Assembly (NCBI GenBank): GCA_964570565.1
Contig: CAZMYT010000004.1
Coordinates: 114,256-178,255 of the forward strand
Direction: 5' to 3'
From: an uncultured Paludibacteraceae bacterium
Lineage (GTDB): Bacteria; Bacteroidota; Bacteroidia; Bacteroidales; Paludibacteraceae
DNA: 64,000 nucleotides
In this document: piece after piece, positions 2,675 to 50,580 of the stretch
Layout of the letters: every line of letters starts with the position of its first letter
Numbering within the stretch: the stretch's first letter is position 1
Program-made: the position numbers and the translations under genes
Notes under the pieces: model-generated
Told to the model about the DNA's origin: nothing
The model's input: only the letters and a program-made list of their open reading frames with translations
The model's database searches: none

Positions 2675-3238
2675 ATGATTCTTTTAGTAGATAACGACGA
2701 TTCGTTTACATATAATATTTTGGAGTTATTGCGGCGTACTACCAACGAACAGGTTACAGTACTCAATCATCGCGACGTGAATGTGGATATGGCAGCTTAT
2801 TACAATGCGTTGATTTTTTCTCCAGGCCCGTCGTTACCTCGCGATTTCCCCATTATGGAGCAATTGCTCGCACAGTACGACAGTTCTAAAGCCATTCTGG
2901 GAATTTGTTTGGGGTATCAAGCTATTTGCGAACATTACGGTGCACAGTTGGTGCAGAGTGACGTGGTACATCATGGCGAGCCTTCTATAATTAACTGTAA
3001 TCCTGATTCTATGCTGTTTGCTGGTATGACTAATACAGTTGTAGGGCGTTATCACTCGTGGCTGGCTACCCATATCCCATCGGAATTACGCATTACAGCA
3101 CGCGATAATTACGGTTCGGTGATGGCGGTGGAACATCTGTCTAAACGCGTGTTTGGTGTACAATTTCATCCAGAGTCGTACATTTCGGAGGCTGGTGAAC
3201 TCATACTTAAAAATTTTCTTCATGCAGCTTCAAAATAG
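2675..3238 (+). CDS. pabA: aminodeoxychorismate/anthranilate synthase glutamine amidotransferase component II
   Basis: Class-I GATase pattern (GICLGYQ, HSW, FHPES). It is followed by pabB and pabC rather than trp genes. Confidence 0.8.
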   Translation: MILLVDNDDSFTYNILELLRRTTNEQVTVLNHRDVNVDMAAYYNALIFSPGPSLPRDFPIMEQLLAQYDSSKAILGICLGYQAICEHYGAQLVQSDVVHHGEPSIINCNPDSMLFAGMTNTVVGRYHSWLATHIPSELRITARDNYGSVMAVEHLSKRVFGVQFHPESYISEAGELILKNFLHAASK

Positions 3239-4205
3239 AGAAACACTGCTTACGGCGATGAATCAATTGGGCGGCGCACGCATTCCGTTTTTGTTTTTGC
3301 TCGATTTCAAAGGCGATTCTGGCGTGGTAGTGAAGTTGTCCGATTTGTCGCAAACTGCTATTTCATGTGTCATCAAAGGCAAACAGTATGGTAAATCCGT
3401 GGTACCATCTGCCCAAAACGTATCGCTTACACCTCAACCTATTGCCGAAGCCGATTATACAACTCGGTTCGATGTTGTGAAACAGGAGATTTTACAGGGT
3501 AATTCATTTTTGTTGAATCTCACATTTCCGACTTATGTGGGTCGTAATTTGGCGTTGGACACCATTTTTTGTGAGGCATCAGCACCTTATCGTTTATTGG
3601 TGAAAGACGAGTTTCTTTGTTATTCACCAGAGTCATTTGTTACCATATCTGACAATACAATTAATACGTATCCCATGAAAGGTACTATTGATGCTCGTTT
3701 ACCTCATGCCGAACAGCTTTTATTGGACGATGAGAAAGAGTTGTTTGAACATTATACCATTGTCGATTTAATGCGTAACGATTTAGCGATGGTCTCTTCG
3801 CGCGTACAAGTGGAACGATTTAGGTATGTGGAGGCCATCGAAACGTCTCGTGGCACTATTTTGCAAACCAGTTCGCAGATTAGTGGTGATTTACCAACCG
3901 ATTGGCAGAATAATATCGGCACATTACTTTTAAAGTTGCTGCCAGCGGGTAGTATTTCGGGCGCACCAAAGCAGAAGACCGTAGAAATTATAGAGCAAGT
4001 CGAAATCACTCCGCGTGGTTTTTATACGGGTGTGATGGGCGTTTTCGATGGCGATTCGGTCGATAGTGCTGTGTTAATACGTTTTTTACGACGCGATACT
4101 GATGGTTGTTTTTATTATCATAGCGGTGGTGGCATTACCTGCAGAAGTGATGCCGCAGCGGAATATCATGAATTATTAGCCAAAATATATGTGCCAACTA
4201 TTTGA
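3222..4205 (+). CDS. pabB: aminodeoxychorismate synthase component I (short chorismate-binding form)
   Basis: Chorismate-binding C-terminal motifs (GSISGAPK, RGFYTGVMG, IRF). I prefer the start at ATG 3222, which overlaps the pabA stop by 17 nt. Confidence 0.75.
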   Translation: MQLQNRETLLTAMNQLGGARIPFLFLLDFKGDSGVVVKLSDLSQTAISCVIKGKQYGKSVVPSAQNVSLTPQPIAEADYTTRFDVVKQEILQGNSFLLNLTFPTYVGRNLALDTIFCEASAPYRLLVKDEFLCYSPESFVTISDNTINTYPMKGTIDARLPHAEQLLLDDEKELFEHYTIVDLMRNDLAMVSSRVQVERFRYVEAIETSRGTILQTSSQISGDLPTDWQNNIGTLLLKLLPAGSISGAPKQKTVEIIEQVEITPRGFYTGVMGVFDGDSVDSAVLIRFLRRDTDGCFYYHSGGGITCRSDAAAEYHELLAKIYVPTI

Positions 4206-5950: not shown

Positions 5951-7168
5951 TTATTTTACCATTTTTACAATATTGAGAATAACTTCTGTTGCTTTTTCCA
6001 TCGATTGAATAGGCACAAATTCGTAACGACCGTGGAAATTATGCCCGCCTGCAAAAATATTAGGGCAGGGAAGTCCTTTAAACGATAATTGTGCGCCATC
6101 TGTGCCACCACGAATTGGTTTTACTTGAGGTTTTACGCCTGCAGCTTCCATAGCAGCAAACGCCAAGTCGATAATATGCATCACTGGTTCAATTTTTTCG
6201 CGCATGTTGTAGTATTGATCTTTCAATTCAACACTCGCCGTACCTGCTCCGAATTCGGCATTTATTTTATTTACTAAATGTTGAATTTCAGCTTTGCGGC
6301 TTTCAAAGCGAGCACGGTCATGATCGCGAATGATATAAGTAAGTGTAGAACTTTCCACATCGCCTTGCATGCCAACTAAATGATAAAAACCTTCGTAATT
6401 TTCGGTATGTTCTGGTGTTTCGTGGCGTGGTAGCATGGTGGCAAATTGGTGCGCTACACGCATGGAATTGAGCATTTTGTGTTTAGCATAGCCTGGATGC
6501 ACATTGCGTCCTTTGAATGTGATTTTAGCTGAAGCCGCGTTGAAATTTTCATATTCTAATTCGCCAATTTCGCCTCCGTCCATGGTATAAGCCCAGTCGG
6601 CACCAAATTTCTCAACATCGAAATGGTGAGGTCCTTGACCGATTTCTTCATCTGGTGTAAATGCCACACGCACTTTGCCATGTTTTATTTCAGGATGTTT
6701 TACTAAATAATCCATAGCAGTCATAATTTCAGCGATACCAGCTTTATCGTCGGCACCTAGCAATGTGCGTCCGTTGGTCACAATTAAATCTTGTCCTACA
6801 TACAGTTTGAGTTCTGGAAATTGTTCAGTCGATAAAACAATAGCGTCTTCAGCATTCAGTAAAATATCGTTGCCGTTGTATTTTTCCACAATGCGTGGTT
6901 GCACATGTTTCCCGGTCATATCAGGAGCGGTATCCAAATGCGCTATAAATCCTAGTGTTGGTAATTCTTTATCGGAATTGGCTGGTAATGTAGCCATTAC
7001 GTAACCGTTTTTATCCACTTCGGCATCTTTTAACCCAATTGCTTTGAGCTCTTCCACTAAGAAATTTGCAAAAATCATTTGTCCAGGAGTACTCGGCGTA
7101 AGTCCTGTTGTGTCGTCAGAGGTGGTGGCGAACGTTACGTATTTTAAAAAGCGTTCAGTAAGCGTCAT
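5951..7168 (-). CDS. pepT: peptidase T (tripeptide aminopeptidase, M20B)
   Basis: [11 protein letters not shown]...HLDTAPD...[11 protein letters not shown] motifs typical of PepT. Confidence 0.9.
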
Positions 7169-7259: not shown

Positions 7260-10088
7260 TTAGCGGTTACATAAATTTTTAAAATGACAATATTCACACA
7301 GTTTGGTATCTGTACATTGTGTGAATGGTTTTTCAGAATTAAAAATATCTGATAAACAGTTTGTTAAACCTGTTTCAAAAGATTCTTTGAAGTTGTTGTA
7401 ATCGTCAATAATTGTGGTTTCGTTTTTCGATGGACTGTATTTGATTTGGTAATTTTCAAGGTCTCGTAAACTATAAATACTTGGTTTTAGCTGTTTTCCT
7501 GTCTTGCAGTTTAGCTGGTACAGCATGGCGTAGAAAAATGTTTGTAGCACGGCTTTAGGTCTTTTGTCATTCGTGCTATCGAATAAATCGTCGATATTCT
7601 GAAATTCAGTGCTCGCTTTGCCTGTTTTGTAATCTACAATGTGTGTTACGTTTTGCTGTTCGTCTACGCGGTCAATTATTCCTTTTAGATTCACCGACAG
7701 TCCATTTTCTAACGTCAGTGCTGTTGTTAGCGATAATTCAGTCTCCAGATATAGAAAAGGTGCCCGTATACGTTGGTCGAATTGCAACGTTTGTATGACG
7801 TATGCTTTTATAATATTGGCAATCAGTAAATTTTCGCCCAATAGCGGCATGTTTGTTTTGTTTTTGTAAAACGTTTTATTGAATGCCGCGTGGATGTAAT
7901 TATCTAACGAAATAGTTCCTTGAATAAGTTGTTTGATAATTTCTTTAGTGACCATTTGTCCTTTGTAAGGCTTGTATACCGACTCCATGACGGCGTGAAA
8001 TAGTGTACCAAATGTGTTCGATTCTATGGTTTCACTTACAGCATCAGGCGGAGTTAAGGCTTCTATTTTAGAAAAATAAAAGCGAAGTGGACAATCAATG
8101 TAATTATTGATGTCGCTTGCAGCAATGGCTTTCCCTGAATCAGCTTGTGTGAAAAGAGCTAGTCGTTCTATAATTCGCTCATCTTTTACAACGACAATAG
8201 GCTCTGTTTTTTTTGACGATACACTATAGCTAACTGCTTTATGAACAATCGGTATTTGGTATAGATATTCCAATTGGGCCGCATAACGGCTCAATTCTCC
8301 GTGTTGCCCATCGGTGCGCGAATCGTAGAGTAGAAATACACGTTTTGCGCGGTAAATCATGCGGTAAAAATTGTATGCAAAAATAGCATCGTGATATTCG
8401 TAAGTTGGCAGCCCGAATGCACGACGTAAACTGTAGGGAATGACCGATGGATTGTTGTTCTTTCGTGGAAAAACACCTTCGTTAAAGGAGGTGATAATCA
8501 AATTGTCGAAATCTAACGCACGGGTTTCCAAAGTACCCATAAGTTGTAATCCTTGCAGAGGCTCGCCTTTAAAAGCAATGGTGATATTGCTCGTGAGTTG
8601 TTTCAATAATTTGAAAAATGTATCGGTTGAAAGGTTTACATGTGTCTGTTTTAGGTTGTCCTCTAAACGATTGATAGCTGCTTGATAATGAGCAAAATAT
8701 TCTGCATCTAATTGTCTGTTGGCATCACTGTAAGTGTGTTCCGAAAGCAATTGTGTAATGGTTGAAAAATAGGCAATGAATTCGCTTGTTTCGGTAATAG
8801 GCGCAAACAAGGCATCGAACAATTTATTCTTATTTAATTCATCGTGGCTGACTAAAAACAAATTGTCTTTGTGAATTTTTGCCGTCATTTGTTCCACGTC
8901 ATTTGCTGCATAATCCACAATGTAAGGATGGTTTAGAATTGCCAACACATGTTTGTAATAAAAATGTGTTTTTCCATCTATCAAACGACCATTTTTTTGC
9001 AAAGCTACCAAGTGATCCATGAGTGCTGCTATAGGTGTGAGCGACAAAGGATAACCCATAGTTATATTAATCGTGTCGATACTTTCGGGAATGGCATGTA
9101 ACATGGGAATTAGCAACTGTTCATCGGGCAAAACAATGGCTGTTTTGAGTCCAACTTGTTCCTGTTGTTTGCTTTGCAACTCCTCTAAAATAGTGTACAC
9201 TTGCTTGGTTTGACTAACATCTGAAGGTATGGCTATCAGTTCTACGTGACGCTCCAAATTGGTGGTTGGCTCGTCAAGATCAAATTCGGAATGAAATTTG
9301 GCTTCGTTTTCTGGTATAAATTGATTTGCCACATTGCCTACTGTTCTAATTTCAGGCGATTGATAATCAAAATAATAATCGCCAATGCCCAATTGCTGGT
9401 ATTTTTTGAAAATTTGTTCTTCGGTGGCTGTGAGGGCATTAAAACCAACAAAAATAACTCGTTTGTAGGTTACCGCTAAAGGCGTTTTACTTTCGGCCAC
9501 TTCTCTAAAAATCATGCCGTCGTAGCCAATGCCTTGTGCTCGTAAATCATCTCGGAATGTTTTGTATAGCGTAAATAAACCGCTCCACATTTCCACAAAT
9601 TGTGTTTCGAGATTGCGTCCATGTTCTTTTAAAAAATAGCCCCAAAATTGCTTGATGATTGTTTTTTGTTCATCACTCATCCAGCTTAAATCGCCCTCAA
9701 TATCTTTGATGTCGCTGATGTTTTGGAACAGTTGTTTGGCATCTATGAGGTATTTATCTATTTCATTGAAATCGGATAACAGCATATCGCCTAAAAATAG
9801 GAATGTATCGAAGGTTTCTTCGTCATTCACTACTTTCTTAAAGCTATTGTATAAGGTGAACAGTAGCGTGATTTTATCGGCTTGAAGTAAAGTGGATTCT
9901 TTTAGAAATAGATCGTTAATGGCTACAATGTCGGGAGCAAATAGAGGCTTGTTAGCCACTTTGGCCAACGCCTTACGAAAAAATAAGCCCGCCCGGCGAT
10001 TCGGAAAGACAAAGGCGAATTCACTGAGTTCCTCTCCGTAAGTGTGGTAATACCGCTGGGCTAGTTGTTCCAGAAAAGGTGTCATCAT
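7260..10088 (-). CDS. AddB-like PD-(D/E)XK nuclease family protein (942 aa)
   Basis: Size, a C-terminal nuclease region (IDRVDE...DYKTGK) and a terminal Cys cluster (C..CEYCHFKNLC) resemble the AddB Fe-S nuclease domain. No helicase partner is present in the window. Confidence 0.6.
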   Translation of the reverse strand: MMTPFLEQLAQRYYHTYGEELSEFAFVFPNRRAGLFFRKALAKVANKPLFAPDIVAINDLFLKESTLLQADKITLLFTLYNSFKKVVNDEETFDTFLFLGDMLLSDFNEIDKYLIDAKQLFQNISDIKDIEGDLSWMSDEQKTIIKQFWGYFLKEHGRNLETQFVEMWSGLFTLYKTFRDDLRAQGIGYDGMIFREVAESKTPLAVTYKRVIFVGFNALTATEEQIFKKYQQLGIGDYYFDYQSPEIRTVGNVANQFIPENEAKFHSEFDLDEPTTNLERHVELIAIPSDVSQTKQVYTILEELQSKQQEQVGLKTAIVLPDEQLLIPMLHAIPESIDTINITMGYPLSLTPIAALMDHLVALQKNGRLIDGKTHFYYKHVLAILNHPYIVDYAANDVEQMTAKIHKDNLFLVSHDELNKNKLFDALFAPITETSEFIAYFSTITQLLSEHTYSDANRQLDAEYFAHYQAAINRLEDNLKQTHVNLSTDTFFKLLKQLTSNITIAFKGEPLQGLQLMGTLETRALDFDNLIITSFNEGVFPRKNNNPSVIPYSLRRAFGLPTYEYHDAIFAYNFYRMIYRAKRVFLLYDSRTDGQHGELSRYAAQLEYLYQIPIVHKAVSYSVSSKKTEPIVVVKDERIIERLALFTQADSGKAIAASDINNYIDCPLRFYFSKIEALTPPDAVSETIESNTFGTLFHAVMESVYKPYKGQMVTKEIIKQLIQGTISLDNYIHAAFNKTFYKNKTNMPLLGENLLIANIIKAYVIQTLQFDQRIRAPFLYLETELSLTTALTLENGLSVNLKGIIDRVDEQQNVTHIVDYKTGKASTEFQNIDDLFDSTNDKRPKAVLQTFFYAMLYQLNCKTGKQLKPSIYSLRDLENYQIKYSPSKNETTIIDDYNNFKESFETGLTNCLSDIFNSEKPFTQCTDTKLCEYCHFKNLCNR

Positions 10089-27140: not shown

Positions 27141-27184
27141 ATCGGTCAATTGTTAAATCCCGCATAAACTCGGAAAAACCATAC

Positions 27185-27229
27185 ATTTTTGTATTGTTTT
27201 TTCGAGTTTTTTTACGTATTTTTGCTGTT
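27185..27229 (+). repeat. 45-nt direct repeat, left copy (contains a -7 box)
   Basis: ATTTTTGTATTGTTTTTTCGAGTTTTTTTACGTATTTTTGCTGTT is 44/45 identical to 29493-29537. Confidence 0.95.
27217..27224 (+). promoter_or_regulatory. candidate -7 box TATTTTTG inside the left repeat
   Basis: TAnnTTTG match about 220 nt upstream of the 391-aa ORF. Confidence 0.4.
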
Positions 27230-27443
27230 CACCAGTAAGGGTATGCTTATTATTATATCTTATGTTTCTGTTCTCCTATTGTATTCCTATTATGAAATAA
27301 TGGTGTGTTTGGTGTATTGTAAATTTTCTTGCTTTATTTAGCTAAGGTTGAGCCAAGATGGAGCTATGATCGAGGCGTAATTTTTTATTGCTTTGGGCTA
27401 TCGTTTGCTCTCTAATTGTTTTTTATCCTATTAAACTATACTT

Positions 27444-28619
27444 ATGACTTTTACTCCAGAGTCCAATTTTAATGCCTTTGCCTATTTTGGTAGTCATCAT
27501 GATCAGTATGAACCTGATACGGTTCTTTTAATTGAGAGTTTATTAAACGCCACTATTCGCTATGATTTGAGAACCAATGCCTCCAATATGGGGAAATTGT
27601 GTCGTTGTTATTTAGATTCAGCTAAATCGATTAATCTCTTTGTCACGTACAGTCAGCAAGAGTTTGACCTGTTAAGTCCCGAAAATCTGGCTGAATGCAT
27701 TATGACGGACTCACCTGAGACCACGGAATTGGCACCCAATTTTGATGCTTTTATGGAATTGATTGGTCGCGATGCGACGTTTGTTTGTATGTATGCTGCT
27801 TTGCAAAATTTCCGTGCGAATGGTATTTTGGATTTTGAATCTATGTATGCTAAACCGCCATTCCAAGCGATATTGGCTCGCCGTGAAACTGTGCATGTTC
27901 CTTTGGAAACGTTGGTCACTCTTCATTTTGAAGAGCAGTTTGTGGTCAAATGTGTTCCTGTTGACCATGATTTAAATCATACGTTCGCTATTATTCAAAC
28001 TGGTTTATCTCTGTTTCAGTGGGCTATTCGTACCCCTAAAAGTTATTTATATGTGGTCAAGAAATGTGGACAGGATCTTTTTTTTCCAGATGATAATGAT
28101 CGTATTTTATTTTTACTGTATTTGTTGAATTTGGTACATTACTACGCACCTCGTCAGATGACCGAACGTGATCGTGCAGCTTTAGAGTTTCGATTACAAG
28201 ATATTTATTCTAGATATACGAAAGTGCCATGGGATTTGAAAGAGCTGCATGAGGTGCCAGATGAAGCTATTATAGATGCTGATTTAGAATCGCTTACTGA
28301 TTCAGATGTATCGCAGTGTTTATCGGGTATTACCCTCAATTCTGATGTGAGTAAGTTGGATTTTATACGGGTATTATATGTCTTGTACGAACTTGATTTT
28401 TTTGTCAAAGAGTCTGGTAAAAAGGTGACCAAAAAGGAGTTATTTGCTTTTTTGGCTACTTGGCTCGGTAAAGAGACATTGGCGCATTATGATAAGGATA
28501 TGACCAACAGCTGGAAATCGGATATGAGTGCTCATATCGCTATATTTGATACCATGCGGTCGAAAATGGTAGAATTGGCGACTAACAAAAATGTAGCTAA
28601 CTATAAAAAGATTGAATAA
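27444..28619 (+). CDS. orphan 391-aa protein; C-terminal ~70 aa resemble a winged-helix domain of RteC-type regulators (tentative)
   Basis: Long clean ORF. The C-terminus SKLDFIRVLYVLYELDFFVKESGKKVTKKELFAFLATWLG has the same residue pattern I remember from RteC C-termini (SK.DLVELIYAL...G...NG K...KEIA..F). This is from memory only. Confidence 0.5.
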   Translation: MTFTPESNFNAFAYFGSHHDQYEPDTVLLIESLLNATIRYDLRTNASNMGKLCRCYLDSAKSINLFVTYSQQEFDLLSPENLAECIMTDSPETTELAPNFDAFMELIGRDATFVCMYAALQNFRANGILDFESMYAKPPFQAILARRETVHVPLETLVTLHFEEQFVVKCVPVDHDLNHTFAIIQTGLSLFQWAIRTPKSYLYVVKKCGQDLFFPDDNDRILFLLYLLNLVHYYAPRQMTERDRAALEFRLQDIYSRYTKVPWDLKELHEVPDEAIIDADLESLTDSDVSQCLSGITLNSDVSKLDFIRVLYVLYELDFFVKESGKKVTKKELFAFLATWLGKETLAHYDKDMTNSWKSDMSAHIAIFDTMRSKMVELATNKNVANYKKIE

Positions 28620-28625
28620 ATGAGT

Positions 28626-28683
28626 CAAAAAGCTAGGGTAAAATCTCACCAAGGCTAGGGTTGTTGGTTCAAAAGCTAGGGTA
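28626..28683 (+). repeat. three phased direct repeats, core GCTAGGGT (iteron-like)
   Basis: GCTAGGGT at 28632, 28654 and 28675 (spacing 22 and 21 nt). Copies 1 and 3 extend to TCAAAAGCTAGGGTA. Confidence 0.8.
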
Positions 28684-28720
28684 GCGGCGATTAACCTTGT
28701 GGGTTTTGTTACTGTTTATG

Positions 28721-28757
28721 TAGAGTTTTCCTGTATGAGGGAAAACTCTATTTTTTG
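28721..28757 (+). terminator. rho-independent terminator after the 391-aa gene
   Basis: 11-bp stem tagagttttcc / ggaaaactcta followed by TTTTTT. Confidence 0.65.
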
Positions 28758-28773
28758 TTGATAATAAAGCACT

Positions 28774-28781
28774 TACCTTTG
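28774..28781 (+). promoter_or_regulatory. candidate -7 box TACCTTTG for the small two-gene unit
   Basis: TAnnTTTG match with TTTG about 16 nt upstream, 82 nt before ATG 28863. Confidence 0.35.
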
Positions 28782-28833
28782 TACTGTCAGTTTCGCAGAT
28801 GGTGTTGTGTGATTGACATTTTTATTATTAACA

Positions 28834-28846
28834 GTCGCTTAGCGAC
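28834..28846. promoter_or_regulatory. operator-like palindrome GTCGCT-T-AGCGAC
   Basis: Perfect 6+1+6 palindrome between the candidate promoter and the small ORFs. Confidence 0.35.
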
Positions 28847-28862
28847 CTAATTTATTTTAAGT

Positions 28863-28970
28863 ATGAAACAAATTCTACTTGATGTCCTTGCCAAGACTCA
28901 AAACCTGGCGAACGCCCTTATGAAAGGATGCGGAGTGTATCATTTTAGTGCTAAAGGAGGTGTACTATGA
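28863..28970 (+). CDS. 35-aa ORF (MKQILLDVLAKTQNLANALMKGCGVYHFSAKGGVL), translationally coupled to the next ORF
   Basis: Hand translation. Its stop TGA overlaps the next ATG (ATGA at 28967-28970). It is below the length cut-off of the ORF track. Confidence 0.3.
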   Translation: MKQILLDVLAKTQNLANALMKGCGVYHFSAKGGVL

Positions 28971-29302
28971 AGGTGATTGACAATTTGATTACTGAAGGGC
29001 TTTCTGGTAAAGTGGAGCAATCGAAGTATTGTTTTAGACGCCACTATGGTAGTACTTTTTTGACTCTGAAGTCGATACCTAGTGGTGAGGAAACTCCTCA
29101 GCAACGGCTGGTAAAGAGTTGGTTTACGGAGGCTCAGCGGTTAGCAAACGTGGACATGGGCGAGACTACTAAACGCCTTGAGTGGGAGCAGAAGTTGCAC
29201 AAAACGAAGTACAAAACGCCTAAAGGTAGAGCTTTTGCTTATTATTTTAAGCAGTTGAAAGCTGGTGTTATTTCTGTACCAGAGATTACAGAAGAGCCAT
29301 AG
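28967..29302 (+). CDS. hypothetical basic 111-aa protein
   Basis: ORF in the track. It is followed by a terminator hairpin. No motif recognised. Confidence 0.45.
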   Translation: MKVIDNLITEGLSGKVEQSKYCFRRHYGSTFLTLKSIPSGEETPQQRLVKSWFTEAQRLANVDMGETTKRLEWEQKLHKTKYKTPKGRAFAYYFKQLKAGVISVPEITEEP

Positions 29303-29327
29303 AGTTGTATTGAGTGGTTGAATGGAT

Positions 29328-29368
29328 GGGAGTTACCTCTGTGAATGCATTGGTAATTCCCATTTTTA
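29328..29368 (+). terminator. rho-independent terminator
   Basis: gggagttacc / ggtaattccc stem (one mismatch) followed by a T-run. Confidence 0.5.
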
Positions 29369-29492
29369 CTTTTTATGAGTCCATGCTCTGTGGATGCGTT
29401 GGCAACCTATATTGAAGGGGATGGCAGGTGTCTATTGTTAGCGTTATGCTTAATCCTCCTTGTTCAGGGCTTTTAGTGTACGAAAATAATAG

Positions 29493-29537
29493 ATTTTTGT
29501 ATTGTTTTTTCGAGTTTATTTACGTATTTTTGCTGTT
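29493..29537 (+). repeat. 45-nt direct repeat, right copy (promoter of the glycan locus)
   Basis: 44/45 identical to 27185-27229. Sequence outside the 45 nt is unrelated. Confidence 0.95.
29525..29532 (+). promoter_or_regulatory. candidate -7 box TATTTTTG upstream of wzm
   Basis: TAnnTTTG match about 160 nt upstream of the wzm ATG. Confidence 0.4.
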
Positions 29538-45981: not shown

Positions 45982-46968
45982 ATGCTTTTATCCATCATCA
46001 TACCCGTTTACAATGTAGCGCCTTACGTTGAGAAATGTTTGGCGAGTTTATTGTGTCAAGGGCTGGCGCCGTCTGACTATGAATTGATTGTGGTCAACGA
46101 TGGTTCCACCGATGAGTCGTACACGATAGCTAAAACATTTTTGGAGCATCAAGCTAGCCTTGCGCCTTTCACCTTTCACCTGATTTCCCAACCCAATGGT
46201 GGATTGAGTGCTGCTCGCAACACAGGTATTCGTCACGCTAAAGGAAAATACATCCAGTTTGTCGATTCCGACGATTATTTAGAACCGCATGTATTGGGTG
46301 CGTTGGTTCAAAAGATGGAGCGAGAACAGTTGGATGTTTTGCGATTCAACTATCAAAATGTGAACGAACAGTACCACGTGTTTGAGCCGTATAAAGCCAT
46401 GAAACCATTTGTCGATTACCGCGATGAGATATGCGATGGTTTAACTTTTCTCACAGAGCGCTTGGGCTACGGCTGTTATGCGGTGCAGTTTATGATACGC
46501 GCTACACTGTTGCAAGCCGAAGTACATCACTTTAAAGCGGGCATCTATTTTGAAGATACCGAATGGACGCCTCGTTTATTGGTGCGTGCACAGCGTGTAA
46601 CTTCCGTAGATACGATGGTGTACAACTATTTGATGCGCACAGGTTCCATTACGCAAAGTGTGGATCCTGAAAAAACTAAAAAGTTGCTGAACGATAAATT
46701 GTTACTTATCGACTCTATGAAACAGCAAGCCCAACAACAGCCCGATAAACGTTGGTTTTTTGGCATGATAGCAGCCACCGTTATTTCGCTGCTTGGTTAT
46801 GTAGGAGCCGACTTTTATCCTCACAGGGCTTTTTATTTCAAAGCGTTACGCGAAAAAATGATTTATCCATTGTCTATGTATCATAGTTCTAAAGTAGCAA
46901 AGCGCAAAATACGGGTTATAAATCTGTCGCCTGCCTTGTTTTGTTGGCTGTTACGCGTTAAACGTTAA
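45982..46968 (+). CDS. glycosyltransferase family 2
   Basis: LSIIIPVYNV...VNDGSTDES...VDSDDY. Its stop codon lies in the first word of the following repeat array. Confidence 0.8.
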   Translation: MLLSIIIPVYNVAPYVEKCLASLLCQGLAPSDYELIVVNDGSTDESYTIAKTFLEHQASLAPFTFHLISQPNGGLSAARNTGIRHAKGKYIQFVDSDDYLEPHVLGALVQKMEREQLDVLRFNYQNVNEQYHVFEPYKAMKPFVDYRDEICDGLTFLTERLGYGCYAVQFMIRATLLQAEVHHFKAGIYFEDTEWTPRLLVRAQRVTSVDTMVYNYLMRTGSITQSVDPEKTKKLLNDKLLLIDSMKQQAQQQPDKRWFFGMIAATVISLLGYVGADFYPHRAFYFKALREKMIYPLSMYHSSKVAKRKIRVINLSPALFCWLLRVKR

Positions 46969-47165
46969 GGGTTAGGGATGAAGGGTTAAACGTTGAACGT
47001 TTAGCGTATAGCGTGAAGAAACTACGTTTAGCGAATAACGAGCAACGTTAAGGGTGAGGGATGAAGGGTTAAAGGTTAAGGGTTTAAAGAACGACATTAA
47101 ACGTTGAACGTTTAGCGTTTAGCGTGCAGTAACTACGAGCAACGATTAACGAGCAACGATAAAAC
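46962..47165 (+). repeat. tandem composite repeat (unit 1 about 83 nt, unit 2 about 121 nt): GGGTTA-type words followed by AACGTT/TAGCG words
   Basis: ACGTTAAGGGT(T/G)AGGGATGAAGGGTTAAA and AAACGTTGAACGTTTAGCGT(A/T)TAGCGTG each occur twice. The perfect palindrome AAACGTT-G-AACGTTT is at 46988-47002 and 47099-47113. Confidence 0.85.
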
Positions 47166-47167
47166 GT

Positions 47168-47194
47168 ACATGAAAGTAGCATATTTATTAGGTT
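47168..47194 (+). repeat. 27-nt direct repeat, left copy (copy of the 5' end of the GT4 gene at 48765)
   Basis: ACATGAAAGTAGCATATTTATTAGGTT is 26/27 identical to 48763-48789. Confidence 0.95.
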
Positions 47195-47202
47195 TACACT
47201 AA
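47170..47202 (+). pseudogene. orphaned 5' fragment of the GT4 gene (MKVAYLLG then out of homology, stop after 10 codons)
   Basis: The first 8 codons are identical in amino-acid sequence to the gene starting at 48765. Confidence 0.55.
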
Positions 47203-47272
47203 AAAAATATTTTTTTAGCAAAATTTTGAACAGATAATTGAATTAATTAGTAGTATCTATTCCTATTTTTAC

Positions 47273-47280
47273 TATTTTTG
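47273..47280 (+). promoter_or_regulatory. candidate -7 box TATTTTTG for abiEi
   Basis: TAnnTTTG match 20 nt upstream of ATG 47301. Confidence 0.4.
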
Positions 47281-47300
47281 TAAACTAATTTGAATATTTT

Positions 47301-47927
47301 ATGAATACACTCTCAGAAATAGGAGCGGTTCCAGTTGATTTTTCGCTACTGAAGGCGATGTATCCTAATCACAAATCGATACATAATAAAATCAGTGAGT
47401 TAGAAAATGCAGGAAAACTTATTCGCTTGAAAAAAGGTTTGTATGTGGTTGCTCCCCAAGAGAGTGGCATGCTGTTATCGTCAGAGTTGATAGCCAATCA
47501 TTTATATGGTCCATCTTATGTTTCCAAAGAGTCTGCTTTACGTTATTATGGCTTAATTCCTGAACAGGTTTATACGCTGTATTCAATGACCACAAAACAT
47601 GCTAGAAGTTTTACAAATGCATTAGGCACATTTGATTATACACACTGTTCGAACGATTATTTTACCATAGGTATTAGGCAAGAATCGAAAGAAGGTTTGT
47701 TTTTTTTAATGGCAACTCCAGAGAAAGCTTTGTGCGACTTAATTATAAACACACCCAACCTAAATCTCCGTTATCAAAAGGAAATCAGAACCTATTTAGA
47801 AGAGGATATACGGTTTGACATGCAGGCATTTTTTAAGATGGATGTGGAAATTCTAAAACAATGTCTGTTGTATGGTAAAAAAAAGCCTATCATTACCAAT
47901 TTAATTCACCTCATCAGAAAATCATGA
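47301..47927 (+). CDS. abiEi: type IV toxin-antitoxin system AbiEi family antitoxin
   Basis: N-terminal wHTH-like ...ISELENAGKLIRLKKGLYV... and ...YVSKESALRYYGLIPE... patterns typical of AbiEi. ATGA overlap with the next gene. Confidence 0.75.
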   Translation: MNTLSEIGAVPVDFSLLKAMYPNHKSIHNKISELENAGKLIRLKKGLYVVAPQESGMLLSSELIANHLYGPSYVSKESALRYYGLIPEQVYTLYSMTTKHARSFTNALGTFDYTHCSNDYFTIGIRQESKEGLFFLMATPEKALCDLIINTPNLNLRYQKEIRTYLEEDIRFDMQAFFKMDVEILKQCLLYGKKKPIITNLIHLIRKS

Positions 47928-48748
47928 ATCCAATGTTTGAACAAATGGTTTCGTCCTATCAAATGGTGACCGATAAGGATAGACGAAATGCCATGTATGA
48001 AGTTATGCAAAAAATAACGTTAGCTGGACTTTATCGAGGAGGTTTTTTCGATAAAGCTGCGTTTTATGGCGGAACTTGCTTACGGATTTTTCATAACATG
48101 GAGCGATTTTCAGAAGATATGGATTTTTCTCTTTTGGTGGCCGATGAGTCGTTTAAAATTGAACACTATTTTCCCGCTATTATCGAAGAGTTTCATTTGG
48201 TAGGCCGAGAGGTGGAGATTACTAAAAAAGATAAAACGCAGTTCAGTAAAGTTGATTCAGCCTTCTTAAAGGACGATACAGATGTGTATGATGTGGTATT
48301 TAAGACTGAGAAAAGTTTGAAAATAAAAATAGAGGTGGATACCCAACCTCCGTTGCAATTTCAAACTGAACATAAATTGTTATTGCGTCCCTATTCGTTT
48401 ATGACACGCTGTTTTACACTACCTAATTTATATGCGGGGAAAATGCACGCATTAGTTTTTAGAACCTGGAAAAATCGTGTAAAAGGCCGTGATTGGTATG
48501 ACTTTGAATGGTACGTTCGCCATGAAGTTCCCTTAAATTTTACTCATCTACAAGAACGTATTAGGGTTTTAAATGGCTTGGAGATGGATGAAAACCAATT
48601 CTTACAACTCCTTAAGGAGCGGTTAGCTTCCACTGATATCAAACAGGTGAAACAGGATGTGGCACCTTTTATAAAAAAACCTAAAGCATTGGAAATTTGG
48701 ACTAATAACTATTTTTTGCAGTTGGCTGACCTGATTAAATTTGAATAA
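47924..48748 (+). CDS. abiEii: AbiEii/AbiGii family nucleotidyltransferase toxin
   Basis: FYGGTCLRIFHNMERFSEDMDFSL (GGT.L...R.SEDxDF) motif and KIEVDT block; 274 aa. Confidence 0.8.
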   Translation: MNPMFEQMVSSYQMVTDKDRRNAMYEVMQKITLAGLYRGGFFDKAAFYGGTCLRIFHNMERFSEDMDFSLLVADESFKIEHYFPAIIEEFHLVGREVEITKKDKTQFSKVDSAFLKDDTDVYDVVFKTEKSLKIKIEVDTQPPLQFQTEHKLLLRPYSFMTRCFTLPNLYAGKMHALVFRTWKNRVKGRDWYDFEWYVRHEVPLNFTHLQERIRVLNGLEMDENQFLQLLKERLASTDIKQVKQDVAPFIKKPKALEIWTNNYFLQLADLIKFE

Positions 48749-48762
48749 ATAAAACTAAACAC

Positions 48763-48789
48763 ACATGAAAGTAGCGTATTTATTAGGTT
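48763..48789 (+). repeat. 27-nt direct repeat, right copy (true 5' end of the GT4 gene)
   Basis: See 47168-47194. Confidence 0.95.
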
Positions 48790-49871
48790 CATTAAATCGG
48801 GGCGGTACCGAAACGTTGGTGTTAGATGTGTTTAAAAAAGCATCGCAAGCACCATTTCAAGTGGTTGGCATCCATCGTAAAAGTGGTGCTTATTTGCCCG
48901 GTTTTAAAGCGACTGGTGAAAAAATGATAGCTTTAGCACCGCGGTTCGTGGGTGATGTGAGTTATTTTGTCAAACTGCGTCGTTTATTGCAACGTGAACG
49001 CGTAGATGTAGTGCATGCGCAACAGTCTTTGGATGCGGTGTATGCTCGTATAGCGTGTGTTGGAACGGATATTAAAGTGGTGCAAACGTTTCATGGATAC
49101 GATTTTAATGCTGGAAAACTGATGCGGCGTTTTATGCGTTTTAGTGCTCATTGGGTGGATGCTAATTTTTTTGTAAGTGCATCACAACGAGATTATTATA
49201 TTAAATCTTATCAATTAAAAGACCACCATAAACAGCACGTAGTTTATAATGGCGTTAATTTCGATAAATTAGACCAACAGGTAGCGCAAGTTGATTTACC
49301 AATTGGTGGCGACCCTGCTTCGCAGGGACTCAAATTGGCGATGGTCGGCAATTTTGTTCGCGGACGCGAACAAAATACCGTTTGTCAATTTCTGAAGTTA
49401 TTAAAAGAGGCTGGTGTGCCGTTCGATTTCTATTTTGTTGGTCGCAAAAGTGAATCAGAGCCTTGGTTGTATGACGATTGTGTTGCCTATTGTCAAGAAC
49501 ATCAGTTGCTCAATTGTGTTCATTTTCTGGGTGGGCGTGGCGATGTTCCAGCCATTTTAAAACAGTTGGATGCTTTTATTTATAGTACCGACCACGATAC
49601 GTTTGGTATAGCTGTCATCGAAGCGATTGCGGCTGGCGTGCCAACCTTTGTAAACGATTGGGAGGTTATGGTAGAAATTACGCAACAAGGTAGATGGGCA
49701 ACTATCTATAAAACCAAGGATGCAGCCGATTTATTCAATAAATTTATTACTTTTGTAGACCATAAAGAACACTATAAACAACAAGCGTGTTCGCATGCGC
49801 AGGAAGTACGTAGTACCTACAGCATTGAACAGCATATGTTGGCGTTGTCAAATTTGTATAATACACTGTAA
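48765..49871 (+). CDS. glycosyltransferase family 4 (GT-B)
   Basis: MKVAYLLGSLNRGGTE start and a C-terminal E..FGIAVIEA.AAG.P block. Confidence 0.8.
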   Translation: MKVAYLLGSLNRGGTETLVLDVFKKASQAPFQVVGIHRKSGAYLPGFKATGEKMIALAPRFVGDVSYFVKLRRLLQRERVDVVHAQQSLDAVYARIACVGTDIKVVQTFHGYDFNAGKLMRRFMRFSAHWVDANFFVSASQRDYYIKSYQLKDHHKQHVVYNGVNFDKLDQQVAQVDLPIGGDPASQGLKLAMVGNFVRGREQNTVCQFLKLLKEAGVPFDFYFVGRKSESEPWLYDDCVAYCQEHQLLNCVHFLGGRGDVPAILKQLDAFIYSTDHDTFGIAVIEAIAAGVPTFVNDWEVMVEITQQGRWATIYKTKDAADLFNKFITFVDHKEHYKQQACSHAQEVRSTYSIEQHMLALSNLYNTL

Positions 49872-49873
49872 AG

Positions 49874-50003
49874 CATTGATTATTGATAATAGATTATTGA
49901 TGTACAAAACACAATGCCATTGATTATTGATAATAGATTATTGATTTATCCATAATCCATTTATCCATAATCTATATATTGATTTATCTATAATTTTAAT
50001 ATT
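49874..50003 (+). repeat. upstream repeat module of four-helix-bundle gene 2 (CATTGATTATTGATAATAGATTATTGAT x2, then ATCCATAATC words)
   Basis: A 44-nt unit at 49874 is repeated from 49918. The tail TTATCCATAATCCATTTATCCATAATCTATATAT recurs downstream of the gene. Confidence 0.85.
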
Positions 50004-50375
50004 TTGAATGACAAACAAATAGCGTTTCGTGACAAGTGTATGGCGTTTGCTGTGTGTGTGGTGAAGTTGCGTAGTTATTTGTGTGAGCAAAAGCATGAAC
50101 ACGATATATCTCGACAATTATTGCGGAGTGGAACAGCCATTGGAGCTTTACAACGAGAGGCTTATCATGCTGAAAGTGATGCCGATTTAGTTCATAAATT
50201 AGCGATAGCTCAAAAAGAGTGTAACGAATCTCTGTATTGGATTGAATTACTGTATCTTACAAATTATATAACCAAAGCAGAATCGGAAAGTTTATCGAAT
50301 GATGCATTAGAGCTCTTAAAAATGCTTACAGCCAGTATTCAAACCCTGAAAAAACGTATAAAACAAAAACAATAA
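50004..50375 (+). CDS. four-helix-bundle protein (23S rRNA IVS protein / Avd-like family), probable TTG start
   Basis: QLLRSGTAIGALQREAYHAES..D..HKLAIAQKECNESLYWIELL family pattern. There is no in-frame ATG before Met12. Confidence 0.75.
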   Translation: MNDKQIAFRDKCMAFAVCVVKLRSYLCEQKHEHDISRQLLRSGTAIGALQREAYHAESDADLVHKLAIAQKECNESLYWIELLYLTNYITKAESESLSNDALELLKMLTASIQTLKKRIKQKQ

Positions 50376-50580
50376 TATTGATTATTGATAATAGATTATC
50401 GATGTACAAAACACAAAAACAATATTGATTATTGATAATAGATTATCGATGTACAAAACACAATAACAACATTGATTATTGATTTATCTATAATCCATTC
50501 ATCCATAATCTATATATCAATTCATCCATAATCAATTATCTATATATCCATAATCCATTTTTCTATATTTTTAATTAATT
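50375..50580 (+). repeat. downstream repeat module of four-helix-bundle gene 2 (two 47-nt tandem units, a partial unit, then ATCCATAATC tail)
   Basis: ATATTGATTATTGATAATAGATTATCGATGTACAAAACACAA occurs at 50375 and 50422. The partial unit and tail are a direct repeat of the upstream module. Confidence 0.85.

Follow-up and report, generated by a model that had tools for sequence, protein, structure and literature searches.

How does a minimal toxin-antitoxin (TA) module come to lie inside a surface-glycan operon, between two copies of the beginning of the next gene? The question is posed by a 64,000-nt stretch of the Paludibacteraceae assembly GCA_964570565.1 (contig CAZMYT010000004.1, forward strand 114,256-178,255; here called the window, to which coordinates refer unless another contig is named), in which the gene pair abiEi-abiEii, encoding an AbiE-type antitoxin and toxin, separates two glycosyltransferase genes, GT2 and GT4. 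Analysis of this locus and its relatives suggests that the segment from approximately 47195 to 48752, comprising promoter and operator, abiEi and abiEii, is probably foreign DNA that entered the GT2-GT4 junction by insertion with long target duplication, carried out by host recombination. The spread of minimal TA and defence cassettes without mobility genes is a long-standing loose end, of which this locus is a clean, multiply sampled example, with occupied sites, empty sites, the fossil of a tandem copy and several flank combinations. The original prediction, an earlier reading of the window from its letters, had proposed a capture event; what it observed is confirmed, and its interpretation is partly supported and largely right, but has to be recast as a TA-cargo case of a known recombinase-free mode of insertion.

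The repeat pair and the insertion site

A 27-nt core, ACATGAAAGTAGCATATTTATTAGGTT at 47168-47194 and ACATGAAAGTAGCGTATTTATTAGGTT at 48763-48789, matches at 26 of 27 positions, as the original prediction had reported; no further copy exists in the window at up to three mismatches, and none of 100 shuffled windows contained any match. Ungapped extension lengthens the pair to 33 nt with 91% identity (47162-47194 and 48757-48789), and alignment to the empty sites described below gives approximately 37 nt, i.e. a duplication of approximately 33-37 nt overall. A looser upstream match that had also been pointed out (ATAAAAC...ACATG) is real, with target-derived sequence reaching approximately 8-12 nt 5' of the ATG on both sides in the empty-site alignment. 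In the window's own genome, a query made of the joined flanks matches only the two repeat sites, and the repeat is not multicopy.

All features of the junction lie on the plus strand. The upstream neighbour, GT2 (45982-46968), adjoins GT4 directly in the empty sites; between GT2 and the left repeat runs an intergenic array of short word repeats (46961-47161), which is target-side DNA with shorter related arrays in the empty sites. The left repeat (47162-47194) is an orphan copy of the GT4 upstream tail and GT4 nt 1-25, whose stub open reading frame (ORF) of 10 codons (47170-47202, MKVAYLLGLH*) passes straight into cassette DNA; in several sister loci the ATG of this left copy has become ATA. 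The right repeat (48757-48789) is the native copy: it comprises the tail upstream of GT4 and the initial 25 nt of GT4 itself (48765-49871), the target gene, which encodes a 368-aa glycosyltransferase (Pfam Glyco_transf_4, 5.6e-21; Glycos_transf_1, 6.2e-16). Alignment with the empty sites places the insert from 47195 to approximately 48752 (~1.56 kb), starting 106 nt before the abiEi ATG and stopping a few bases after the abiEii stop codon, within a short spacer (48749-48756). It encodes abiEi and abiEii only, and no mobility genes.

Native copy of the repeat and empty sites

Orthologs of GT4 that have no AbiE beside them, in genomes of the same genus and the same family, start with MK(V/I)AYLLGSL(N/S)RGGTE and are closely similar in DNA; hence the right copy is the true start of GT4, as had been predicted, and the repeat is derived from the target. 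The possibility that the repeat is intrinsic to the cassette, which would then have donated the GT4 start, was rejected because AbiE-free orthologs share that start. Decay of a GT4 paralog as the source of the left copy was likewise rejected, since similarity breaks off sharply at GT4 nt 25 and the empty sites contain a single copy; the left copy is the orphaned 10-codon stub that the original prediction took it to be. Orthologs only 60-70% identical to GT4 overall match it at 21-25 of the first 25 nt versus 46-53 of the next 75, making the repeat the best-conserved patch of the gene. Two AbiE-free GT4 starts with 25/25 identity (L112, L136) were considered as excision scars and dismissed, the first 25 nt being conserved in all orthologs.

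A degenerate 25-mer pattern was scanned through genome and metagenome collections. The uninterrupted GT2-repeat-GT4 junction, the search for which the original prediction had proposed, was found in two metagenome contigs (L133 and L139), each with the 3' end of GT2, a short word-repeat array, one copy of the repeat and GT4, and no AbiE. Their GT2 genes are 88-90% and their GT4 genes 82-91% identical to those of the window, and the related word arrays sit immediately 5' of the GT4 ATG. Because these contigs lack AbiE and hold a single repeat, the cassette is a discrete indel of ~1.56 kb with a target duplication of ~33-37 nt. Among 40 relatives and 200 genomes of the family there was no empty site, and the sole match to the left flank, in G012, had a truncated cassette.

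The repeat-bearing unit in other contexts

The cassette is single copy in the window's own genome. Cassettes 96-98% identical to it occur in at least 12 other assemblies, and both repeats are present wherever both ends were assembled. Across contexts the cassette is 96-98% identical, GT4 82-97% and GT2 88-96%. In Paludibacteraceae assemblies the repeat-cassette-repeat unit is seen with at least five left flanks (here A to E) and four right flanks (a to d) in at least eight combinations (A-a, A-b, A-d, B-c, B-d, C-c, D-a and E-a). Left flank A is the native GT2 with its intergenic array (window, G014, L028, L135, L141, L143-145 and G012); B is a 5' stub of a WecB-like epimerase gene fused, at CCTGAT, with 60 nt that copy the end of abiEii, the spacer and the repeat (G011, L110, L134, L138 and L142); C is AT-rich non-coding DNA (L029); D is an acetyltransferase gene with a 17-nt intergenic region (L131); and E is a different GT2 with its intergenic region (L140). 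Right flank a is intact GT4 (e.g. the window, L131, L135, L140, L144 and also G014, where GT4 contains stop codons); in b the repeat is followed by 65 nt and a different GT4, with the last 200 nt of the original GT4 persisting further on (L028 and L137); in c it is followed by ~100 nt and a full epimerase gene (G011 and L029); and in d ~40 nt of GT4 give way to unrelated DNA (L110 and L143).

Flanks D and E are the native GT4-upstream contexts of other locus types, and the adjacency of acetyltransferase gene and GT4 is also found without AbiE, in L112; to judge from these sequences, the D and E loci look like the same unit placed at the GT4 start of different loci. Because the unit occurs in at least eight flank combinations, the duplication appears to have been made once and to have since travelled or recombined with the cassette. 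The repeats are more than the local scar of the original prediction. Some related cassettes have different repeats of their own (see below). At polymorphic sites in the repeat (ATG/ATA, GCA/GCG and GGTT/GGCT), the variants change places between left and right copies from one lineage to another, a pattern suggestive, though not proof, of repeated exchange.

The 60-nt copy in flank B, 93-97% identical to the abiEii tail, spacer and repeat in five assemblies, is the fossil of a tandem cassette copy, the upstream unit of which was later deleted at a 6-nt microhomology. In one such contig (L025, G011:C53), a 57-codon 5' stub of a WecB-like UDP-GlcNAc 2-epimerase gene (6760-6935) lies upstream of the cassette and a full-length epimerase gene, ~75% identical to the stub, lies downstream (8692-9849); stub and abiEii tail meet at the common hexamer CCTGAT. 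Flank D was examined as a second fossil of the abiEii tail and discarded, since TTGAATAA there is the stop region of the acetyltransferase gene that naturally precedes GT4 elsewhere.

Flanking repeats of related AbiE cassettes

The survey covered Bacteroidales loci encoding AbiEii relatives of 65-76% identity, with a flanking direct repeat counted at 20 nt or more. Such repeats flank AbiE in 17 of 67 loci of the first set, compared with 3 of 344 windows shifted by 1.8-2.8 kb and 7 of 166 other one- or two-gene units of the same loci (Fisher p = 7e-6); after a second scan, the count was 20 of 107 unique loci, which are not phylogenetically independent and hold approximately 13 distinct repeat classes. 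The repeat signature is common in this AbiE family (19-25%, versus 4% for gene-boundary controls and 1-4% for all controls).

Repeat lengths in the 107-locus set range from 22 to 181 nt; none falls between 19 and 22 nt, and this floor near 22 nt is compatible with a minimum length of homology. Between cassette lineages the repeat sequences are unrelated, no common motif occurs at the borders, and no conserved cassette ends were found across lineages beyond operator/promoter and stop codon. These features bear on the idea that a trans-acting transposase with long, variable staggered cuts, as in Mycoplasma IS1630/IS1634, made a true target-site duplication. Long, variable duplications are indeed known for such elements (PMC2853133), and the repeats of the AbiE survey are variable in length; we nevertheless consider this account extremely unlikely, given the lack of terminal inverted repeats and conserved ends, cassette boundaries that differ between lineages, and no repeats shorter than 22 nt above background.

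At L079 a 60-nt repeat covers the boundary of two adjacent genes, with the end of the first and the beginning of the second, and leaves both intact; at L098 the left copy completes the upstream gene while the right copy is an orphan. The genome of L079 has no relative close enough to provide an empty site for its cassette. Elsewhere the repeats would permit another explanation, namely that most Bacteroidales pairs are chance placements of AbiE between pre-existing repeats, such as multicopy gene ends and intergenic word arrays, and that the window is a one-off. In Segatella copri the repeat turns out to be where a multicopy acetyltransferase gene ends (its 3' end), at L105 it is an array of intergenic words, and placements of this sort were listed as a separate class by Furuta et al. 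(PMC2853133). As a general account this has little chance of being correct: gene-boundary controls in the same loci reach 4% versus 19-25% for AbiE; each of L079, L098 and the window has one copy that makes a flanking gene complete and one orphan copy; and the window repeat exists in two copies only in its genome. The Segatella copri repeat, once a candidate for a second clean example, was set aside as a multicopy gene end. In Segatella copri and relatives (L227-L262), each genome has several copies of the 3' end of this acetyltransferase-like gene (...QLVGGDKDMVKVFKYKG*), followed by different downstream genes, and in some strains short stubs of it flank an AbiE cassette.

Around another AbiE cassette (L090, 4908-5300) stands a perfect 81-nt repeat that copies a HipB/HipA-like module's promoter together with its initial 12 nt, so that one TA cassette is inserted directly ahead of another. 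The cassettes of L098 and L062 are 87% identical in unrelated contexts; they share homology only over a span that begins 65 nt 5' of abiEi and ends immediately ahead of the abiEii stop codon, indicating a tightly trimmed mobile unit. The window itself holds a second cassette, which the original prediction had placed at 27185-29537 and credited with the same signature, and which proves to have a 55-nt repeat with 93% identity (27175-27229 and 29483-29537) copying a promoter with TAnnTTTG. Its two ORFs (27444-28619, 391 aa; 28967-29302, 111 aa), neither of which has a Pfam match, are arranged in the same architecture as the AbiE cassette.

The AbiE gene pair and its promoter

Both genes are intact and lie between the repeats behind a -7 box, as originally read, with the antitoxin gene first and an ATGA overlap. 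AbiEi (47301-47927, 208 aa), a predicted type IV antitoxin and autorepressor, matches the PADLOC AbiEi model PDLC02230 (2.8e-72, residues 10-207) and, under its cutoff, NCBIfam TAA_AbiEi (NF047376; 2.8e-13, 49.9 bits versus a cutoff of 150); it has no Pfam match at 1e-3. It is a member of the AbiEi family (COG5340) at the level of hidden Markov models (HMMs), not an equivalog. AbiEii (47924-48748, 274 aa), a predicted DUF1814 nucleotidyltransferase toxin, matches Pfam PF08843 (3.9e-30) and the PADLOC model (2.4e-114) and keeps motifs I-IV (YGG 48-50 ... R..DMD 65-67, KMHALVFR 173-180 and RDWYD 189-193). These motifs have been defined as hG[GS]x~15DhD with an Arg (I-II), K..R (III) and +DxxD (IV) by Dy et al. 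(2014, PMC3985639), who showed that toxicity and GTP binding require all four. A PDB sequence search returned spurious matches only.

The left end of the insert (47195-47300) contains an A/T palindrome, a putative operator and a promoter element. The putative AbiEi operator, an inverted repeat matching at 8/9 positions (GAACAGATA, 47228-47236, and TATCTATTC, 47254-47262), lies 5' of a Bacteroidetes -7 box TAnnTTTG (TATTTTTG, 47273-47280), and relatives have a stronger inverted repeat and TAnnTTTG at the equivalent place upstream of abiEi; homology to diverged cassettes begins near 47214-47228. The palindrome, a perfect 20-nt one located 5 nt inside the insert's left end (47199-47218), is variable in length and imperfect in sister cassettes (L027 and L029), and is therefore probably not a conserved site.

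No terminator-like site was found between abiEii and the GT4 ATG, 16 nt downstream, and GT4 is now probably co-transcribed from the putatively AbiEi-repressed promoter. The insertion puts the downstream half of the glycan operon behind that promoter, through which the state of the defence module could come to influence how capsule or glycan is expressed. The pair may serve in phage defence, and this might be connected with the glycan locus as a phage-receptor determinant.

Decay of the cassette and its surroundings

In a genome of the same genus (G012; L123, G012:C115, minus strand ~2690-2950), the locus is preserved from GT2 through the intergenic array and left repeat as far as the abiE promoter, and abiEi breaks off after ~130 nt into unrelated DNA and a tRNA gene, which indicates deletion of the toxin gene, most of the antitoxin gene and everything from GT4 onward. 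In G014 (L026, G014:C12), a GT4 pseudogene with several stop codons (2950-4053) lies downstream of a 99%-identical AbiE cassette. A metagenome contig (L134, ~1900-2157) carries an internally deleted cassette, in which a junction between the equivalents of window positions 47330 and 48615 has removed the greater part of both genes and spared the B-type left flank. The GT4 of L141 is chimeric. The suggestion that the TA pair may stabilise this half of the locus is weakened by the GT4 pseudogene of G014 and the deletion in G012.

Downstream of GT4, the empty-site contig L139 differs from the window at 49872-50580: hardly anything separates the end of GT4 from the membrane-protein gene that comes next (window 50569 onward). 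A small gene of the 23S rRNA intervening-sequence family (PF05635; window 50004-50375) is missing there together with its repeat arms, and is a second, independent presence/absence cassette in the same operon.

Proposed mechanism of insertion

Host recombination is suggested by the variable repeat length with its floor near 22 nt, the variable ends, the preservation of a neighbouring gene by one copy, the tandem fossil and the placement of the unit at the same 25-nt patch in different loci. The insertion would require one illegitimate joint (GT4 nt 25 | TACAC) and one homologous exchange within the ~35 nt made up of the GT4 upstream tail and the first 25 nt of GT4, an exchange that may depend on RecA. 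It could have proceeded by a Campbell-type single crossover of a circularised fragment or by homology-facilitated illegitimate recombination with overlap; either would leave GT4 intact with an orphan GT4 stub upstream. Once GT4-start homology, the best-conserved patch of the gene, stood on both sides, host recombination could delete the cassette, duplicate it in tandem or transfer it into other loci with the same GT4 start, with no need for a recombinase encoded by the element.

No dedicated enzyme is indicated by the sequences. The 268-kb contig (C4) on which the window lies contains no tyrosine recombinase (PF00589), which agrees with the original prediction that no local recombinase was involved; transposase families were not searched genome-wide. 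The cassette has no terminal inverted repeats, and no near-identical cassette was found on known plasmids or phages. Six tyrosine recombinases are encoded elsewhere in the genome, and the repeats might be imagined as the attL/attR core of a non-autonomous integrative and cis-mobilizable (CIME-like) element, mobilised in trans by a recombinase of the tyrosine or serine type whose gene lies on a conjugative element or in another part of the genome, a picture that the presence of the same 25-33-nt repeat at both ends in every context and the recurring outer borders would also suit. We judge it very improbable: the repeat is simply the conserved coding start of GT4, the repeats of other cassette lineages (22-181 nt) are unrelated to it and have no motif in common, right borders range from nt 25 to nt 41, the contig encodes no tyrosine recombinase, and the sequence is without arm-type or dyad structure.

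Several observations weigh against insertion by host recombination. Its proposed homology, 25-37 nt, is at the lower limit for RecA-mediated exchange; in the assembled sequences no excision circle, same-strain empty site or tandem dimer was directly observed; and right flanks b, c and d all break inside GT4 nt 25-41, a clustering that simple homologous exchange does not predict and that hints at a hotspot or another process. The surveyed loci are not phylogenetically independent, as stated above, and the Segatella copri repeat is not a clean target duplication. Finally, a Paludibacter contig (L034) with AbiE of ~71% DNA identity has the order GT2-AbiE-GT4 and the same tight abiEii-GT4 spacing without a left repeat, so that the AbiE-GT4 linkage may be older than the repeat, and the repeat secondary.

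Taken further, the arrangement in L034 would allow AbiE to be a long-resident neighbour of GT4, with the left repeat arising from local partial tandem duplication (by unequal crossing-over or slippage) of the cassette and GT4 start, loss of most of the upstream copy, and later deletions at the empty sites. The B-type flanks prove that a tandem copy once existed, and deletion between short direct repeats is common (PMC2884548). We regard this history as rather unlikely, since in flanks A, D and E the left repeat directly adjoins intergenic DNA that natively precedes GT4 in three different locus types, and not the remains of a cassette; independent deletions would all need ends within ~35 nt of the repeat; the flanks (82-97%) vary more than the cassette does (96-98%); and most relatives have GT4 orthologs without AbiE. 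Insertion with target duplication by host recombination remains the reading that we prefer.

Implications for minimal toxin-antitoxin cassettes

Two findings go beyond the original prediction, namely the spread of the repeat-bearing unit from locus to locus and the frequency of the signature in this AbiE family. We raise, tentatively and with some doubt, the possibility that AbiE cassettes, and perhaps TA modules generally, are self-propagating "homology-armed" elements that host recombination amplifies, excises and re-inserts at any locus sharing the arm sequence. If this were true, the virus-like life cycle proposed by Kobayashi would extend from restriction-modification (R-M) systems to a toxin that does not cut DNA, and the movement of minimal TA cassettes without a recombinase would be explained; furthermore, with arms formed by a conserved glycosyltransferase start, a defence module would home to surface-glycan loci.

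Comparison with known systems

Elements integrated at att sites and integron cassettes are recognized by a cognate tyrosine or serine recombinase and an att or attC dyad; the contig encodes no tyrosine recombinase, although one might act in trans, and the repeat has no dyad. Homology-facilitated illegitimate recombination has reportedly been shown, by de Vries and Wackernagel in 2002 and by Prudhomme et al. in the same year, with longer anchors in naturally transformable species. Like Campbell-type, merodiploid and homology-facilitated events, the model for AbiE combines a homologous exchange with an illegitimate joint to yield a foreign insert, possibly with a duplicated homology segment; unlike the hosts and anchors of those experiments, the AbiE host is an uncultured member of the Paludibacteraceae and the homology is shorter.

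Small variable segments of bacterial genomes are flanked by repeats in 10-18% of cases, the repeats being mostly shorter than 30 bp and pre-existing (Touzain et al. 2010, PMC2884548), and some background of the repeat-flanked pattern is accordingly to be expected. Both these segments and the AbiE cassette are present or absent between short direct repeats and are explained by recombination between repeats, whereas one copy of the AbiE repeat is plainly an orphan, made anew by duplication of the start of a gene. With the AbiE systems of Lactococcus lactis and Streptococcus agalactiae (Dy et al. 2014, PMC3985639), the pair in the window shares a bicistronic layout with overlapping genes, an antitoxin of AbiEi type and a DUF1814 toxin that has motifs I-IV; an inverted repeat in its promoter is a candidate counterpart of their operator. 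AbiE systems are further characterized by toxicity that the antitoxin neutralises without direct contact, by GTP binding and by phage resistance, properties that the window pair may have. In sequence the window pair is distant from these systems, with a match at the HMM level only, and differs in its Bacteroidetes-type -7 promoter and its chromosomal position inside a glycan operon.

The closest parallel is provided by R-M gene complexes, for which insertion with long target duplication was described (Nobusato et al. 2000, Gene 259:99; Furuta, Abe and Kobayashi 2010, PMC2853133). R-M systems without mobility genes show long, variable target duplications and amplification via the repeats (PMC2853133; PMC3874152), and Furuta et al. 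proposed a cycle of invasion, amplification and release, with double-strand breaks made by the element suggested as its driver (PMC2853133; PMC3874152). Both R-M insertions and the AbiE cassette are small addiction or defence units without a mobility gene; both have long, variable repeats that align to a single empty-site copy and often cover the end or start of a neighbouring gene; and both show signs of amplification via the repeats, in the case of AbiE the tandem-copy fossil. Furuta et al. (2010) defined their set as inserts shorter than 20 kb, with no mobility gene and with flanking repeats longer than 30 bp aligning to one empty-site copy. The AbiE insert is 1.56 kb long and has no mobility gene, and its 33-37-nt repeat, just above 30 bp, is single in L133 and L139 and is not multicopy; its cargo is AbiE, not R-M, and it is therefore filed as a variant of the phenomenon rather than as a member of the R-M set.

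Unlike R-M insertions, the AbiE cassette has a repeat at the short end of the R-M range, resides in Bacteroidales, occurs as the same repeat-bearing unit in many flank combinations, and carries a type IV TA system with a nucleotidyltransferase toxin instead of a DNA-cutting enzyme. Because AbiEii is a nucleotidyltransferase, element-made double-strand breakage cannot drive the insertion of AbiE; with a cargo that cannot make DNA breaks, host recombination together with selection or addiction, and not an element-encoded nuclease, is argued to underlie the signature. AbiE would accordingly represent a new cargo class for the known mode of insertion with long target duplication, probably driven by host recombination.

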